Shown here in pieces: positions 16,844 to 63,955 of a stretch of 64,000 nucleotides of DNA. Position 1 is the first letter of the stretch, and each line of letters opens with the position of its first letter. Under the pieces are notes generated by a model. That model saw nothing but the letters and a program-made list of their open reading frames with translations, was not told where the DNA came from and made no database searches. Origin of the DNA: Escherichia phage vB_EcoS_AKFV33. Location: sequence record NC_017969.1; one strand, written 5' to 3'. Position numbers and translations under genes: made by a program.

Positions 16844-16872
16844 TTGCTTTCAGGAAAATTTTTCTGTATAAT
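16844..16872 (+). promoter_or_regulatory. T5 early promoter, PN25-like
   Basis: TTGCTT, 17 nt, TATAAT, then AGATTCATAAATTTGAGAGAGGAGTTTAAATATG; from memory this matches the classical T5 PN25 promoter and its leader nearly base for base. Confidence 0.85.
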
Positions 16873-58109: not shown

Positions 58110-58561
58110 TATAAGAACCTTGCGAATCCTGATTTTGTTTCAGTCTTGACTTGTGTCTTTTCTTGAGGATTCTGTAATTTGTCTTTCTGCTTTTGAACCC
58201 ACGCTTTTTGCTTATTAGCAGAAAATAAAGGAGGTTCTTTTGTGTAAACCTTATGTAATAATTGGTGATGGTGCTGGCACAATGTTACCACATCCCTAAC
58301 TAACTCATGCTCATATTTCTTGTAGAATGCTTCCCTATTTGAAAGGACGATATTCTCATCAGTGAAATCCAGCTGGAGTTCTTTAGCAAATTTTTTTATT
58401 AGCTGAGATATAGTATGATAATGGTGAAGTTCTAGGTCTTCACTACTACCACATATAGCACAGCAACCATCCTTACTATACCTAGATTTTATACCATCCC
58501 TCATTATGGAAATGGCATCACGTTTGTACTTAGTATTAGTGGCCATAATCCTCCAATCCAA
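58109..58561 (-). CDS. HNH endonuclease
   Basis: 150 aa; Cys/His-rich HNH-like blocks (CAICGSSEDLELHHYH ... CQHHHQLLH); overlaps the portal start. Confidence 0.6.
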   Translation of the reverse strand: MDWRIMATNTKYKRDAISIMRDGIKSRYSKDGCCAICGSSEDLELHHYHTISQLIKKFAKELQLDFTDENIVLSNREAFYKKYEHELVRDVVTLCQHHHQLLHKVYTKEPPLFSANKQKAWVQKQKDKLQNPQEKTQVKTETKSGFARFL

Positions 58562-59210
58562 AGCTACTTAGAAAGATTACTATATCCTCAGGAGCAACAT
58601 TAAAAAATTCCGTGCTTCCTGTAAAATTAGAAAACCCACAGTTTTTATTATAATATTCTCTGTGAACTTCCTTTTCTAAATCTAAAGCAGTCTCTCTATC
58701 TGGCAGATGATACATGGTGAACAAGTATAGGTCAGAAAATCCAGATTCTCTTTTAACTTCATTCAGCCGTTTCTCAGGGTATAAGCTTATGCCTACTTTA
58801 GTACCACTAGAGGAGGACATGATATAGAGGAATCCGCCATTCTCCCACTTAAGAGAACAATAAGGACATCTCTTACCTTGAGTCAATCCATCTAAGGTAA
58901 TTAAACAGTCATGCCCCTTATTGCAGCGTAGATGTAGTTTTGTTTTAGCATTAGTATAGCTGCTTAACAGAGTATACCCTATATTAGATATTCTGTTATT
59001 AACTTCATCTAACGATATTGTATTATTGGAGCAGTGTGGACAACCTCTCCCCATATGGAGTATAGAATGTGGTGTTGCTTCCCAAACGTGTGCTCTCTGG
59101 CATTTAAATACTGTTTTTGTACGTTGGTTTACATATTCACCGACAATTTGGATTCCACGATCAGCTAATCTAATATTTATATCTTTTATTGTTAGCTTTT
59201 GTCGACTCAT
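58536..59210 (-). CDS. T5orf172-domain protein (second paralog)
   Basis: 224 aa; same two-zinc-ribbon plus T5orf172-like architecture as 6882..7550 (shared GEYVN.RTK..F.C...H.WE, CP.CS, TK.GIS, STEFF blocks). Confidence 0.7.
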   Translation of the reverse strand: MSRQKLTIKDINIRLADRGIQIVGEYVNQRTKTVFKCQRAHVWEATPHSILHMGRGCPHCSNNTISLDEVNNRISNIGYTLLSSYTNAKTKLHLRCNKGHDCLITLDGLTQGKRCPYCSLKWENGGFLYIMSSSSGTKVGISLYPEKRLNEVKRESGFSDLYLFTMYHLPDRETALDLEKEVHREYYNKNCGFSNFTGSTEFFNVAPEDIVIFLSSFGLEDYGH

Positions 59211-59381: not shown

Positions 59382-60698
59382 TTATTTACCACGGGAAATA
59401 GAGTAAATTCCATAGCGCAGAGCATCACAGAGGTGAGAGTTAGCATCATGACGTGGTTTTTCACGTGATAATTTTTCTTCACCTTCTTGGAAATCCCACT
59501 TGTAATTCTGCAATGCGTGAATTAATGAGGAACATGAAGCATCCACAATAATCTTGCCCTGCTGGAATAGCGCTTGCAAGCATGCTAGACCATCTAGGAC
59601 AGATTTTTTAGCTGGAGCCGATGCAATTTCATGCTCATACGCTAAGTCCTGACGGAACTGAGCTGCGGCAGAGTCAACAAAAACACGATCAACTTTATAA
59701 CGATCTATACAGTGTTGAATATACGCAGCATGCTGAGCTGTGGTTTTCTCCGCCTGCTGGTACTCTTCTAATACATAGTAAGTATCCGTATCGTAATGAT
59801 ATTTAATAGTAAGAACTGCTGTAGGATCACGATAACCAACGTCAATGCCAAGTAAGGTTTCGAATGCTTCGTCATCTTTAAAGAAGTGACGCATACCTTT
59901 GAGGTCTTTAACATGATCGATAGCGTTAAAGGTATCAAAGATCTGACCTTCGAATACAGAGAAATCAGCCTCATATTCCTGACGGAAGTAGTTTTTACTA
60001 ACTGTGCGACGTGCTTCTTCTATGTCATTCAGGTCAGCACGTGGGTTATCACGATACGTACCATGAATAGATACCCAGTTAGGCAATGTATCATCAAATC
60101 CATAGGCGTAAAACTCTTTAAACCAGTTACCACCACGAGGAGTAGAGATAAATAGAGCCTTAGAGTTTGGTTTATCTAGGGTAGGGCGCAACTGAACTCT
60201 AAAGGCATCGCCACCAACATCGGAAATTGCCGCCTCATCGAAGATGATAAAGTCATATGAACGTCCAACTGCGGAGTCAGCCTGCGCCGCAGAAGCTAGT
60301 TTAAACAGAGAACCATTAGCTAACTCAATCTCTTTATCTTTAGCGTTCTCACGTTCAGTTTGTAGGCCATACTTCTTAATAAGACCACGAATCTGAGACC
60401 ATCCGATATTGGCCAGTGAGTAGTTAGGGGCAACTACTAGCACCTTCACATTAGGTTCCAGCAATTTTAGGAACCCAAGAGTATACGCTATAAAAGACTT
60501 GCCCACACGGCGTGATACACACGCCGTTACAAAACGATGTCTAGGGTCTTCTAGAGCATTGATGATCGCTATTTGAGGACCATTAGGTGTAATACCTTCT
60601 TGTGCTAGTATTCCGGAAACAGGTAGACGAAAGAAACGTTTGTCTATTCCGAAATCAATAACATCTACTGTATTAACGTAGGGTCTTGATACTTCCAT
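59382..60698 (-). CDS. terminase large subunit
   Basis: 438 aa; Walker A-like SRRVGKS near the N-terminus; nuclease-like C-terminal half. Confidence 0.8.
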   Translation of the reverse strand: MEVSRPYVNTVDVIDFGIDKRFFRLPVSGILAQEGITPNGPQIAIINALEDPRHRFVTACVSRRVGKSFIAYTLGFLKLLEPNVKVLVVAPNYSLANIGWSQIRGLIKKYGLQTERENAKDKEIELANGSLFKLASAAQADSAVGRSYDFIIFDEAAISDVGGDAFRVQLRPTLDKPNSKALFISTPRGGNWFKEFYAYGFDDTLPNWVSIHGTYRDNPRADLNDIEEARRTVSKNYFRQEYEADFSVFEGQIFDTFNAIDHVKDLKGMRHFFKDDEAFETLLGIDVGYRDPTAVLTIKYHYDTDTYYVLEEYQQAEKTTAQHAAYIQHCIDRYKVDRVFVDSAAAQFRQDLAYEHEIASAPAKKSVLDGLACLQALFQQGKIIVDASCSSLIHALQNYKWDFQEGEEKLSREKPRHDANSHLCDALRYGIYSISRGK

Positions 60699-61180
60699 TA
60701 CTTCTTACCTCCAGTAGCCAGGGAAGTAATTAAGTCCATATAGTTTTGATCCCCAGCTCCAGCAATAATGTTATTCTGGATATTGGTCTGGTTAGCAGGA
60801 GTACGGGCTGCTGCCTTCACTTTCTCCAATTCTACCATCATTTTCATTTCTTCCATCTTCATCTTGTGTGCCTTCCAGAGAATGTCCATAATATCCTGGT
60901 CAGAACCCATGCCGGTTTCTTCTAGTTCCTCTAGTTTACGCTTAATAACTTCATCTAGAACACCAAACAAACGATCTCTGTTACGGAATCCACTTTCCAT
61001 AAAAATATCGTTTAAGTAGTTCTTAACTTCGCTACGATTCATAATATCTCGGAAAGCAATTTCGGACATTCCAAGACTACGTGCGGCAGAAGGCACATCG
61101 CTACCACACTGTAAATAAGCTTCAATTACATCCATCCCTTCAGGGGACATAAGATCTGGTACTAATACATCATTTGCCAT
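60698..61180 (-). CDS. terminase small subunit candidate
   Basis: 160 aa; HTH-like N-terminus; directly upstream of and overlapping the large subunit. Confidence 0.55.
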
Positions 61181-61190
61181 ATTTCCTCCT

Positions 61191-62948
61191 TTAGGTAAGG
61201 CGTTGAACTGTTACTCTTAATCTAGGTAGGAAAACTGCACTACCTAAACTTACGTGCATAACTACCCCTAATTCTACATTTCCATTTCCTAGATTTTTAA
61301 CTGTATATATGAAACTATTTCTACTTAGTGCATTATTAGGTGTGTATCTAAATGCAGATGTAGTATGAAAGGGTACTAAGTAACCTACAGGTAATGTTAA
61401 AATCTGGTGGAATATTGCATCTCCATTACTATAGCTATAAGCCCTTCTTCCCTGCACCTGAAATACACCGTTATTCCATGTATTAGCTGGAACACCAGCA
61501 CAATTAAGATTACCAGATATAACTTCAGTAGTAAGAATAACGGTAGCATTACCTCCTGGAATTCCTAGTCCAATAGTAGATAAAGCCACATATCTATCTC
61601 CAGTTCCTGGATAGTAAGGAGTAATATCATCCCCCATGTAAGAACTACCAACATTTCCACTAAAAAGTCTCAGAGGAACTGAAGAGGGCCCCCAAACAAC
61701 ACCATGTTCGTTACCAATAGTATTATTACTTGAGTTTACGTACCATTGCTTACCAGCTCCGAATTTGTAAATACTAATTTGAGACTTAGCCCCTCCGTGA
61801 TCTACAGGAGACCATAAACTCCCGTTACTAGAACCTACAAGTTCACACCTTGCAGTGGTATCTCCGAAGGCTCCAGTGTACGCTGCGTTATTTCCAATGA
61901 ATTCCATATCTGGCCTATAGCCTAAGTTACCAAAAGCATTTTGGTTGATAAACTTATACCCAGTATTCGGTAAACTAACCCCTTTTATAGTAAAATTAGA
62001 GGGAGAAATAAGAATATCTGAACCAGTAAAAGGATTACCAGAAATACCCATATTACCATTAGAATACCTCAGATTAAGTACATACCAAATAACCTTAGTA
62101 GGAGTTATGTTATACCAATCCTGTAATATTGTAGCATTACCAGATTGATTAGCTAAATTAGTTGTAGAACCTCTACAAACAAATCTATTACCCCCATCAT
62201 GATACATAGTATTTACATTACCAGGAAGACCTTGTCTTACCCCACCATACCCACGTATATTAGAGCTACAAACATAAAACCAATCGTGTCCTCTGTATGC
62301 TGATCCTAAAGGAGACATCCATCCTGGGTCCCAGTAATATTGGTTATTACCATCTATAGGTACTGTACTACTATTAGTAGGAAAACCCAGCTGTGCAAAA
62401 GCTTCTGCAACAGTAATACCTACTGGAGCTCCTGCACCTGGCCTAACTATACCATGATAAGTACTATGTAGGGTGGTTCCACCAGTACCATTTCTAGAGA
62501 TAGATTCTTCATGCCCTATAGATGGGTTATAGTTATATGTTCCAGATGCCAGGCTATTACCAAATGCAAATCCACTAGTTTGGGAAACGCTAGCAAAAGA
62601 TCTAAAGGGGTCTGCTTGAGTAGCAACTATAGTTTGACCTACCTTACTCTGAGTACCATTAAGAAAAGCCCTATGAGTACCATTAATCTCAATAGCAGTT
62701 AGTATAACTCTACCTGGGTCATTAGATTTAATATTTATTATGTCAGAGGGCATCTGACATACAAAAAACCCATTTCCAGCATCACCTAACCCAGCCTCAT
62801 AAGTACCATCAACTAGGACAAATGGCATATCACTATGAAAAATACTATTATTATTTGGACTATAGTGACTATTAATGTCACCACCAGATTCAGTATTTAA
62901 AGATAGTACGGTCTTACCATCGCTATATTTTCCAGCGAAAAAACCCAT
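61191..62948 (-). CDS. receptor-binding tail protein (pb5-like)
   Basis: 585 aa, Gly/Asn/Ser-rich; transcribed divergently from an llp-like lipoprotein gene, the arrangement I recall for T5 oad/llp. Confidence 0.55.
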
Positions 62949-62973
62949 ATAATCTCCTATTATAAAAATGTAT

Positions 62974-63002
62974 TTGCTTTCATCCCTCTATTTTGCTATA
63001 AT
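62974..63002 (+). promoter_or_regulatory. T5-type early promoter (TTGCTT-17-TATAAT) for llp
   Basis: Consensus elements followed by the AGATTCATAAATTAGAAATGGAGAG leader and the llp ATG at 63034. Confidence 0.8.
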
Positions 63003-63033
63003 AGATTCATAAATTAGAAATGGAGAGATAAAT

Positions 63034-63300
63034 ATGAAAAAGTTTGTGATTGCACTAGTTGCCGCAGTTATGTTATCTGGTTGTGCACCTGCTCCTAAAC
63101 CATTTTGTACGGGATTTGTAAAATCTTTTGGCGGTGCGGGAGAAGAACATTACGGTCTCAAGGTTCAAAAAGTTCGTATTAAGGGAGATCGCTTTCCAGT
63201 AGTACAGCTCCGTACTAAGTTTGGGTGGTGGGATCTCAGTCAGTTTGACCTTAAATATGGTGATTGTAAATTTAAACTAGAGCAATCTAACTACCTGTAA
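63034..63300 (+). CDS. llp: receptor-blocking lipoprotein (Llp-like, superinfection exclusion)
   Basis: 88 aa; signal peptide with lipobox (VMLSGC); small, divergent from the receptor-binding protein gene. Confidence 0.7.
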   Translation: MKKFVIALVAAVMLSGCAPAPKPFCTGFVKSFGGAGEEHYGLKVQKVRIKGDRFPVVQLRTKFGWWDLSQFDLKYGDCKFKLEQSNYL

Positions 63301-63477
63301 TTAGTATAAAGCAAAAAGACATCTAAGTAAACTAAATTTTTTATTTCTTGGATGGTATATTGGCAGAAAACACTATGCAAGAAAGTGAAAAGTCCTTCTA
63401 GGAAGTCACGAGCATGGTTGGTTATGCACAAACTATAAAATATTTTAAAATAGCATATTTACAGGAGTATGAAAGAT

Positions 63478-63606
63478 ATGTCAAATAAAAGAAAGAACAG
63501 ACGCGGAGAAGTGTACGAAGCGTGGATTAATATTTATGGATTTGGTTTTGTATTATTCCTAATCTTCGTAGGCTTTTGGTTAGCAGCTATGGCGGGGTGG
63601 ATATAA
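63478..63606 (+). CDS. small membrane protein
   Basis: 42 aa, below the track cutoff; AGGAG Shine-Dalgarno 8 nt upstream; basic N-terminus then one transmembrane helix. Confidence 0.45.
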   Translation: MSNKRKNRRGEVYEAWINIYGFGFVLFLIFVGFWLAAMAGWI

Positions 63607-63710
63607 TGGGAGTAATAATTATTGTTTTATTAGTTGTGGTAATTCTAGGGCAGTGTGTCTTGGATAACCACTTAGCTCGTATTGAACGTAAGCTACGGGA
63701 ATATAAATAA
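63606..63710 (+). CDS. small membrane protein
   Basis: 34 aa; start overlaps the previous stop (TAATG); hydrophobic N-terminal helix and basic C-terminus. Confidence 0.4.
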   Translation: MGVIIIVLLVVVILGQCVLDNHLARIERKLREYK

Positions 63711-63955
63711 TGTTTAGTATTATAATTGCTTTTATTATCGGGATACTCGCGGGAGTTTTCGGGACGACTGCGGCAATCAATAAGCATCGGGAATATATTG
63801 CGGGGGTGACGCGGGAGATTGCGGAAAGGGAGCGGAAGTTTGACGAGAAACGTGCGGAGTTTGAGAGAGAATGGTCGGATGGATCTCGGGCGTCGCGGAA
63901 GAGATTTCGTGAGTTTAAACCTGAACATCGTTTTGATGACCCTTCTATGCGCTAA
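63710..63955 (+). CDS. small membrane protein
   Basis: 81 aa; start overlaps the previous stop (TAATG); N-terminal transmembrane helix and Arg/Glu-rich C-terminus. Confidence 0.45.
   Translation: MFSIIIAFIIGILAGVFGTTAAINKHREYIAGVTREIAERERKFDEKRAEFEREWSDGSRASRKRFREFKPEHRFDDPSMR

Follow-up and report, generated by a model that had tools for sequence, protein, structure and literature searches.

A BF23-type host-recognition and lytic-conversion module, most likely directed at BtuB, in the T5-like phage vB_EcoS_AKFV33

Beside its terminase genes, Escherichia phage vB_EcoS_AKFV33 carries a gene for a pb5-like receptor-binding protein (RBP) and, transcribed away from it, a gene for a small lipoprotein (llp), which raises the question of which receptor the tail protein uses and whether the lipoprotein blocks that same receptor. 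We analyzed a stretch of 64,000 nucleotides of this genome (NC_017969.1), hereafter the window, which comes from a T5-like phage (Tequintavirus) and over 24 kb matched KS_S14 best (94.7%), with Cit2 at 93.9%. The original prediction described a 585-aa frame and a lipoprotein frame transcribed divergently from a common region, and both were present in the ORF list at exactly the positions it gave, on opposite strands and separated by a spacer of 85 bp (Table 1). The ATG of the RBP gene is preceded by AGGAG 5 nt upstream, and its stop codon lies 10 nt before the start of the small terminase subunit gene; the RBP gene heads the late terminase gene string; the position immediately upstream of the small terminase gene is the one found in all T5-like phages, and the placement of the RBP gene beside the terminase genes has been formulated as a rule (PMC8594841). 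The llp gene is flanked by the RBP gene and small membrane ORFs and does not belong to a lysis cassette. Judged by their sequence matches, neither frame is a chance ORF, because the larger product matched phrog_4815 ('receptor binding tail protein') over residues 1-585 (E 5.7e-272), the smaller matched phrog_1119, a group named after Cor, over its full length (E 1.8e-26), and tblastn returned homologues in 539 phage records for the RBP and 439 for the lipoprotein.

Table 1. Features of the RBP/llp locus and its surroundings (positions in the window)
Feature	Position	Strand	Basis
Receptor-binding tail-tip protein gene (hrs/oad; pb5 family, assigned by identity to the BtuB class), 585 aa	61191..62948	-	ORF, phrog_4815, T5 pb5 match
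llp, predicted outer-membrane lipoprotein for receptor blocking (superinfection exclusion); precursor of 88 aa, mature form of 72 aa	63034..63300	+	
Divergent intergenic control region, 85 bp	62949..63033	.	Sequence and comparison with BF23, Lindwurm, T5
Small terminase subunit (TerS), directly 3' of the RBP gene	60698..61180	-	phrog_3802, E 6.5e-91
TerL	59382-60698	-	Downstream of the RBP gene, same strand
RBP residues ~91-270, where BtuB-class alleles vary most; likely loops in contact with the receptor (inferred)	62139..62678	-	Block identity to BF23-type Hrs
RBP residues ~450-570, second variable segment, with the pb5 loop L4 equivalent	61239..61601	-	Block identity to BF23-type
llp promoter: -35 TTGCTT (62974-62979), 17-nt spacer, extended -10 TGcTATAAT (62994-63002)	62974..63002	+	Direct reading, conserved with T5
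Codon of Cys17, lipid-modified first residue of mature Llp; +2 = Ala	63082..63084	+	Lipobox LSGC, LPAM_1

Sequence and predicted structure agree that the large protein is a member of the pb5/Hrs family with the pb5 fold, elongated and built around a large central beta-sheet. It aligned with the PDB chain of T5 pb5 (8b14_B) at ~30% identity (E 8.8e-47), and its AF2 model (pLDDT 90.6, pTM 0.90) yielded significant Foldseek matches in the PDB to pb5 only (8b14_B and 8a8c_B, E 5e-32 and 1e-28, TM 0.61-0.69 overall and 0.65-0.69 for the match at E 5e-32); the expectation of a pb5-like receptor-binding protein was thus borne out by both. No family was returned for the RBP by a scan against the Pfam copy used, and PF26860 is listed in the protein database for all RBP homologues. 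As a member of this family, the RBP would be expected to sit at the straight-fibre tip of the virion and to be required for irreversible adsorption; the BF23 counterpart, Hrs, has been found in virions by proteomics (PMC10644984).

Comparison with pb5-type proteins of known receptor, run as originally proposed, assigned the RBP by sequence to the BtuB class and not to the FhuA class, and BtuB is the most likely receptor. The RBP of T5_ev212 (LR597659.1) is 97% identical (567/585), and its 18 differences all fall outside residues 100-217; RB-TnSeq experiments in both K-12 and O157:H7 mapped the receptor of EV212, equated with the GenBank T5_ev212 by name alone, to btuB (including bioRxiv 10.64898/2026.04.02.716166). 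Identity was 73% to the RBP of DT57C, for which BtuB dependence was shown genetically (PMC4728585), 66% to Hrs of BF23, whose receptor is BtuB (PMC10644984), and 55% to that of phiR2-01, a BtuB-class reference phage (PMC8624392), compared with only 28-30% to the RBPs of the FepA-binding H8 (28%) and the FhuA-binding T5 (~30%). The RBP therefore groups, in this identity comparison, with those of BtuB-requiring phages and apart from the FhuA and FepA clusters. Published phylogenies resolve three clean RBP clusters from which the receptor is predicted (PMC8594841), and a survey of 25 Demerecviridae found FhuA use only in phages with pb5 itself (bioRxiv 10.64898/2026.04.02.716166). The suggestion that AKFV33 might use a receptor different from that of T5 was therefore correct. 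The T5 pb5 length given in its support, roughly 640 aa, is also right (640 aa), but shortness relative to pb5 is the wrong yardstick, since proven BtuB-binders measure 585 to 595 aa; by our comparisons, the class is marked by the ~30% identity to pb5 and not by length.

Divergence within the BtuB class is concentrated in two segments. When compared with BF23-type Hrs in 30-aa blocks, identity was 73-83% over residues 1-90 and 77-93% over residues 271-420, falling to 37-70% over residues 91-270 and 53-67% over residues 450-570. It is the first of these segments, too, that fails to align with T5 pb5. Loop L1 of T5 pb5 (tip Gln115) corresponds to RBP residue 114, and L4, the loop inserted into FhuA (570-590; loop residues as given in bioRxiv 10.1101/2022.06.28.497910), corresponds to residues 536-540, so we infer that the variable loops near residues 91-270 and 536-540 contact the receptor. 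At the L4 equivalent, the 585-aa allele lacks 7 residues that are found in BF23 Hrs, which accounts for most of the difference between 585 and 595 aa.

The small protein is, by sequence, a receptor-blocking lipoprotein of the BF23 type. Its N-terminus reads MKKFVIALVAAVMLSGC, with the lipobox L-S-G-C placing the lipidated cysteine at residue 17, and Pfam LPAM_1 scored 23.9 bits against a cut-off of 20 bits, in agreement with the clear lipobox noted at the outset. Under the Lol sorting rule of E. coli, Ala rather than Asp at position +2 predicts sorting to the outer membrane, and Llp, with its +2 Ala, would accordingly be an outer-membrane lipoprotein. All 88 of its 88 residues are identical to those of BF23 Llp (OR083247, BF23_00171). 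With the Llp of DT57C, a one-residue variant, DT57C and BF23 plated over 100-fold less efficiently and T5 was unaffected (PMC4728585), and exclusion by BF23 llp exceeded 6 logs in Mondigler 2006, as cited in the same paper. The proposal of a superinfection-exclusion pair, in which the lipoprotein blocks the receptor of the tail protein, is accordingly upheld through this identity with a protein of published exclusion activity. C17, C25 and C78 were invariant in 12 family members. Across 18 loci, codon differences in llp amounted to ~118 synonymous versus 13 non-synonymous, which places Llp under strong purifying selection next to a variable RBP, a pattern in keeping with an Llp whose binding partner is the receptor and not the RBP.

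One near-invariant Llp allele adjoins four BtuB-class RBP alleles of 66-98% identity, and near-invariant Llp beside diverged RBP alleles is already in the literature. It is conceivable, albeit rather improbable, that this RBP diversity beside a constant Llp reflects phage-versus-phage selection, with remodelled loops, the shortened L4 equivalent among them, partly escaping the Llp-induced conformation of BtuB, or widening use to the BtuB orthologues of Escherichia, Salmonella, Shigella and Citrobacter; if so, the exclusion between phages of the BtuB class would fall short of full reciprocity.

The description 'Llp-like' holds for function and position; at the level of sequence, a direct relation to T5 Llp was undetectable (23% identity; hhalign of the mature BF23-type against the T5-type proteins, E 0.13, not significant). 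Neither phmmer with the lipoprotein nor hmmsearch with its 12-member profile found T5 Llp among all PDB chains, and Foldseek with the Llp model did not retrieve it, while T5 Llp was the best structural match of that model. T5 Llp itself matched phrog_1119 (E 1.1e-19), but the phrog_1119 matches are not independent proof of kinship because the profile may itself contain both types. By hhalign, mature Cor aligned with mature T5-type Llp (probability 91%, E 1.3e-6) and, over only the N-terminal 31 columns, with mature BF23-type Llp (probability 72%, E 3.4e-5), so that the link between the two Llp types is visible only through the Cor proteins and, tentatively, the fold, and the homology is weak. 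The three subtypes, represented by 49 collected sequences, shared without exception (49/49) a lipid Cys, a second Cys 8-10 residues on and a third near the C-terminus; in T5 Llp, Cys11 and Cys58 form a disulfide. A HMMER search of the lipoprotein family profile against 1.84 billion representatives gave only 3 hits, among them a bridging 86-aa lipoprotein (P0045) and a repetitive 541-aa artefact (P0044), indicating that the BF23-type Llp family, as captured by sequence, is very narrow.

The 85-bp spacer is almost identical in BF23 and Lindwurm and partially conserved in T5, and in the records of both T5 and BF23 a promoter is annotated within it for each direction, those of BF23 being software predictions. 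The promoter expected ahead of llp was upheld on sequence alone: its elements are of T5 type and recur, conserved, in the oad/llp spacer of T5 where a promoter region is annotated, and it is one of 10 TTGCT-N17-19-TATAAT sites within the window, against 0.34 expected by chance, sharing with this family an A/T-rich upstream block and a downstream ATTCATAAATT. A generic promoter scan of the window did not call it, because TTGCTT agrees with TTGACA at only 3/6 positions; since that scan gave promoter counts no higher than in shuffled sequence, the T5-specific pattern was used instead. No intrinsic terminator was found after llp by a generic terminator scan. Early expression of llp, as originally suggested, would follow from the T5 literature (Decker 1994, as cited in PMC8624392).

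In T5 and BF23, this module is typified by the divergent orientation of its RBP and llp genes (PMC8624392), and a diverged hrs accompanied by a BF23-type llp has been described before in DT57C (PMC4728585). One close counterpart is hrs-llp of BF23 (Mondigler et al. 1996, 2006; OR083247, Skutel et al. 2023), which shares with AKFV33 the Llp, the spacer, the place upstream of the terminase genes and the BtuB receptor class, and differs in its RBP allele, with the divergence confined mainly to the two variable segments and the L4-equivalent deletion described above. The same 585-aa RBP allele (95-99%) occurs in T5_ev212 and ~100 more records (L6jm, Lindwurm, WP85, SSP1, SP01, Cit2 and others), with the same layout, only point differences and an Llp that is identical or differs by at most 2 residues. 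In DT57C and DT571/2 (Golomidova et al. 2016), where BtuB was identified genetically, Llp differs by one residue and the DT57C RBP has 586 aa. The oad (pb5)-llp module of T5 (structures 8B14, 8A8C, 8A60, 7QJF) has the same architecture, divergent promoters and RBP fold, and its Llp is likewise a small lipoprotein with a lipid Cys and one disulfide pair, but the receptor there is FhuA and its Llp has 77 aa. The Cor lipoproteins of T1-like and phi80-like phages belong to the same PHROG, have the same Cys pattern and are encoded beside receptor-binding genes; they are 73-76 aa long, have FhuA as their target and do not carry the C-terminal extension KFKLEQSNYL of BF23-type Llp.

Two other receptors have to be weighed against BtuB. 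It is very unlikely that the RBP binds FhuA like T5 pb5, with the lipoprotein blocking FhuA, even though it shares fold and family with pb5, Cor, the namesake of phrog_1119, is a FhuA blocker, the related Sepoy record is annotated 'FhuA receptor-binding tail protein', and FhuA has been inferred for the RBP of Cit2, which is 96% identical, in a paper citing '96.9% identity to T5' (PMC12980165). In our identity matrix, the Cit2 RBP was 30.6% identical to true T5 pb5 and 96.9% to T5_ev212; because the published value is obtained against the latter, the FhuA assignment looks like a comparator mix-up. The low identity to pb5, with a receptor-contacting stretch that fails to align, also speaks against FhuA, as do the confinement of FhuA use to pb5 carriers and an Llp that is the same as in BtuB-dependent BF23, given that BF23-type Llp confers no protection against T5 (PMC4728585). 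It is harder still to credit that the 585-aa allele uses neither BtuB nor FhuA but FepA or some other TonB-dependent transporter, with Llp a relic of a BtuB-using ancestor: the low identity and indels in the putative contact segments relative to BF23 Hrs and the documented recombination of hrs and llp (PMC4728585) would allow it, but EV212, whose RBP is 100% identical over residues 100-217, maps to btuB, identity to the FepA-binding H8 is only 28%, the three RBP clusters predict the receptor, and DT57C is as divergent from BF23 and yet uses BtuB (PMC4728585).

For the lipoprotein, a lysis function (o-spanin) or an unrelated moron has a negligible chance of being the right reading. Small phage outer-membrane lipoproteins are often o-spanins, and family members showed weak PHROG matches to Rz-like spanins (E 0.04-0.2), but these are limited to the signal peptide (residues 1-30), the full-length match is phrog_1119, llp stands outside any lysis cassette and has no partner i-spanin, and the identical protein excludes phages (Mondigler 2006, as cited in PMC4728585). 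On the evidence listed against each, the spanin, FhuA and FepA readings were rejected. A different question is how Llp acts, and we consider it unlikely, if less so than the foregoing, that it blocks BtuB by direct extracellular masking or another route (e.g. BtuB levels) instead of periplasmic 'reverse allostery'. An older in vitro study put T5 Llp on the cell surface, the allosteric mechanism is solved for FhuA only, and direct sequence comparison with T5 Llp gave no significant homology. Against this, Lol sorting that depends on the lipobox, with Ala at +2, leads into the outer membrane's inner leaflet, on the periplasmic side; T5 Llp, a family relative and the top structural match of the Llp model, is periplasmic in the crystal structure, and a near-invariant Llp beside variable RBPs fits a conserved periplasmic binding surface.

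Collectively, we hold with a probability of about 0.93 that the locus serves a T5-like phage in host recognition and lytic conversion and represents the BF23 (BtuB) version of this module. The present analysis supplies the gene anatomy, the membership in families, the assignment to the BtuB class on grounds of near-identity and the identity with BF23 Llp, while BtuB dependence and exclusion by BF23-type Llp come from the literature on relatives. The RBP, a monomeric tail-tip protein with the pb5 fold, would most likely use the variable loops at one of its ends to bind BtuB, the vitamin B12 transporter, on its extracellular side and thereby trigger DNA ejection. Soon after infection, llp would be transcribed from its T5-type sigma-70 promoter, and the lipoprotein made would bind BtuB and render it unusable by BtuB-dependent T5-like phages, so that superinfection would be excluded and progeny spared from sticking to debris. 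By analogy with the FhuA-Llp complex, the only case in which the periplasmic allosteric mechanism has been solved, Llp probably binds BtuB at its periplasmic face and plug and brings about the closure of the extracellular loops by allostery.

Published work already covers the module, the class of its receptor and what this exact lipoprotein does, and the value of the analysis lies in naming them correctly: the RBP should be annotated as BtuB-specific and the lipoprotein as BF23-type Llp, since a name like 'FhuA receptor-binding protein', or 'Cor' on its own, could give a wrong idea of the receptor. The probable error in a recent paper that gives FhuA to the 585-aa RBP allele (PMC12980165) matters for receptor-based cocktails of T5-like phages. 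Finally, BF23-type Llp, Cor and T5 Llp are connected weakly but consistently, which supports the view that one small lipoprotein fold may have been retargeted to different TonB-dependent transporters.

The divergent pair of receptor-binding tail-tip protein (RBP) and lipoprotein (Llp) was confirmed as genuine and rightly interpreted, with BtuB as its very probable receptor. Both ORFs are genuine genes, as their matches to PHROG protein families indicate, and they lie on opposite strands separated by 85 bp. The Llp N-terminus, MKKFVIALVAAVMLSGC, comprises a signal peptide and the lipobox LSGC with the lipidated cysteine at residue 17, and the Pfam LPAM_1 match exceeds the family cut-off; ORF reading and LPAM_1 thus upheld the coordinates, lengths, orientation and lipobox of the original prediction. 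The small and large terminase subunit genes lie downstream of the RBP ORF on the same strand. The 2.5-kb pair region matches 275 phage records, with L6jm (98.3%) and Lindwurm (97.1%) followed by fp01, SSP1, SP01 and T5_ev212, and because the best matches are Tequintavirus genomes, the window belongs to a T5-like phage. Over 24 kb (window 40000-64000), no INPHARED genome is identical, the closest being E. coli phage KS_S14 (94.7%), and the closest RBP is that of Salmonella phage WP85 (99.1%).

Features of the divergent pair, its surroundings and the Cit2 counterpart
Feature	Position	Strand	Evidence
RBP ORF, 585 aa	61191-62948	minus	ORF reading; phrog_4815 'receptor binding tail protein', E 5.7e-272
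llp ORF, 88 aa	63034-63300	plus	ORF reading; phrog_1119, E 1.8e-26
llp promoter	-35 TTGCTT 62974-62979, 17-nt spacer, TGcTATAAT 62994-63002	plus	sequence reading
Nine further T5-type promoters (pattern starts)	3004, 6601, 9433, 16844, 17870, 19086, 20261, 24264, 28845		TTGCT-N17-19-TATAAT with common flanks
Three small ORFs 3' of llp	63469-63606, 63576-63710, 63710-63955	plus	single membrane helices; phrog_8596, phrog_6369, phrog_6447 'membrane protein'
224-aa ORF adjoining large terminase gene	58536-59210	minus	CapR, zinc-ribbon and T5orf172/MUG113 domains; phrog_681 'endonuclease'
Locus L038, RBP/llp of Citrobacter phage Cit2 (OP745948.1), counterpart of window 61191-63300	561-2670

The RBP belongs to the family of T5 pb5 at about 30% identity, since both sequence and model retrieve pb5, as had been proposed. 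Its match to pb5 in the PDB (E 8.8e-47) covers conserved residues 1-100 and 270-532, with the middle not aligning, and Foldseek of an AlphaFold model built with 31 homologues (pLDDT 90.6) found pb5 alone in the PDB (8b14_B, E 5e-32, TM 0.65-0.69). In tblastn over phage genomes, identities fell in steps: about 100 records at 90-99%, 293 at 60-80% including DT57C (73%), phiR2-01 at 55%, and T5, H8 and Klebsiella phages at 27-31%; compared directly, the RBP is 66% identical to Hrs of BF23. BtuB is the receptor of BF23 (PMC10644984), DT57C (PMC4728585) and phiR2-01 (PMC8624392), and is used by every tested relative whose RBP is more than 55% identical to ours. RBP phylogenies form three clusters predictive of BtuB, FhuA or FepA (PMC8594841), and a 2026 screen reported 23 BtuB-binding Demerecviridae whose protein shares about 30% identity with pb5 (bioRxiv 10.64898/2026.04.02.716166). 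The nearest receptor-tested relative, T5_ev212, shares 567 of 585 RBP residues, with no differences across residues 100-217; RB-TnSeq in both K-12 and O157:H7 pointed to btuB for 'EV212', which equals this GenBank entry by name only. The suspicion of a receptor other than that of T5 was therefore borne out by RBP class (97% to T5_ev212, 30% to pb5). Binding of BtuB by the tail-tip RBP and triggering of ejection are established for close relatives, and we infer the same here. RBPs P0036-P0038, at 38-43% identity, may represent a further receptor class.

A conflicting assignment concerns Cit2, for which a 2026 paper deduced FhuA from a 585-aa RBP '96.9% identical to T5', leaving the RBP decoupled from a BtuB-type Llp (PMC12980165). 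In our identity matrix, the Cit2 RBP shares 30.6% with genuine T5 pb5, and the value of exactly 96.9% arises from its comparison with the RBP of T5_ev212, a BtuB phage. The further identities given in the same paper (BF23 66.7%, DT57C 73.2%, H8 27.7%) are those of a BtuB-class RBP, and both the FhuA deduction and the decoupling most likely reflect a comparator mix-up.

Llp is 100% identical to the Llps of BF23, T5_ev212, Cit2 and Lindwurm, and DT57C llp equals BF23 llp save one residue (Golomidova et al., PMC4728585). DT57C llp cuts plating more than 100-fold for DT57C and BF23, with T5 unaffected (PMC4728585), and the drop quoted there from Mondigler 2006 for BF23 llp exceeds 6 logs. The proposed superinfection-exclusion function has thus already been demonstrated for this exact protein. 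In the likely course of events, the RBP at the tail tip would bind BtuB, with ejection following; Llp, produced early and lipidated at Cys17, would be sorted to the outer membrane because its +2 residue is Ala, and would inactivate BtuB there. With FhuA-Llp as a model, Llp would most likely bind the periplasmic face and plug of BtuB, its extracellular loops folding inward.

The llp promoter is followed by GGAGAG and ATG, and the same elements are kept between oad and llp in T5, whose record has promoters annotated there in both directions. TTGCT-N17-19-TATAAT occurs at 10 sites in the window versus 0.34 expected by chance, all ten sharing an upstream A/T-rich block and a downstream ATAAATT motif. 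Site 16844-16872 with its flanks resembles the classic T5 P_N25 promoter of expression vectors. A generic promoter/terminator scan did not call the llp promoter and found no terminator 3' of llp. Early llp expression is reported for T5 (Decker 1994, as cited by a later paper) and by analogy would apply here.

In a set of 29 loci from IMG/VR, a single Llp allele (identity at least 97.7%) adjoins four RBP alleles with 66-98% identity to the window RBP, a pairing seen at loci L005-L026 (RBP plus upstream llp): 585 aa (95-98.5%), 586 aa of DT57C type (73%), 595 aa (72%) and 595 aa of BF23 type (66.6%). With a 593-aa RBP comes a second Llp allele (68%), and T5-type RBPs accompany T5 Llp. The llp DNA differs by 0-12 nt between loci, nearly all silent; of the codon differences counted in 18 loci, about 118 are synonymous and 13 non-synonymous, these events not being independent. 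The L011 Llp has 90 aa with an additional 'AP' repeat. RBP divergence is focused in residues 91-270 and 450-570, and the pb5 loops inserting into FhuA, L1 (tip Gln115), L2 (tip Phe170) and L4 (570-590) (bioRxiv 10.1101/2022.06.28.497910), map inside these segments; the L4 equivalent is residues 536-540, where the window allele lacks 7 residues found in BF23 Hrs. This fits fast-evolving RBP contact loops and a blocker bound to a conserved region of BtuB. That hrs and llp can be uncoupled was already known from DT57C (PMC4728585).

T5 Llp is only 23% identical to the window Llp, direct sequence searches gave no link between the two, and hhalign of BF23-type and T5-type mature domains was not significant (E 0.13). 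Both match phrog_1119 (T5 Llp, E 1.1e-19), the family of the Cor exclusion lipoproteins of T1-like and phi80-like phages, whose mature domains align with BF23-type Llp at 72% probability (E 3e-5) and with T5-type Llp at 91%. A lipid-bearing Cys, another Cys 8-10 residues further on and a C-terminal Cys recur in 49/49 collected members. Judged from sequence, the two Llps are probably remote homologues inside a Cor/Llp family, short of proof. The literature is divided: some papers term the T5 and BF23 Llps non-homologous (PMC10644984, PMC4728585), while others assign T5 Llp to the Cor family, and a 2026 paper already mentions Cor-like proteins in BtuB-using Markadamsvirinae. A lipoprotein of 86 aa, P0045 (L039 856-1116, on a 111-kb Logan contig from SRR27755633), bridges BF23-type Llp and Cor (phrog_1119, E 1e-11). 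Its gene, in a T5-like genome not yet characterised, likewise diverges from an RBP gene, which the contig end truncates.

The three ORFs downstream of llp have homologues in T5 (T5.159-162). In SP01 and HMD-P4 the first bears the label 'receptor blocking protein', which found no support here. The 224-aa ORF probably encodes a homing endonuclease that has entered the string of packaging genes. Upstream of the 637-aa H8/FepA-type RBPs (L030, L031) and of the 658-aa Klebsiella-phage-like type (L032, L033), no Llp/Cor-like lipoprotein was seen; the divergent neighbours are, respectively, an acidic protein of 103-108 aa devoid of a signal peptide and a protein of 74 aa whose N-terminus bears a single membrane helix. 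If these are exclusion factors, they would be of a different kind from Llp/Cor. The window pair itself is already known: a textbook module whose lipoprotein has been published in identical form and whose RBP is 97% identical to one with a known receptor.
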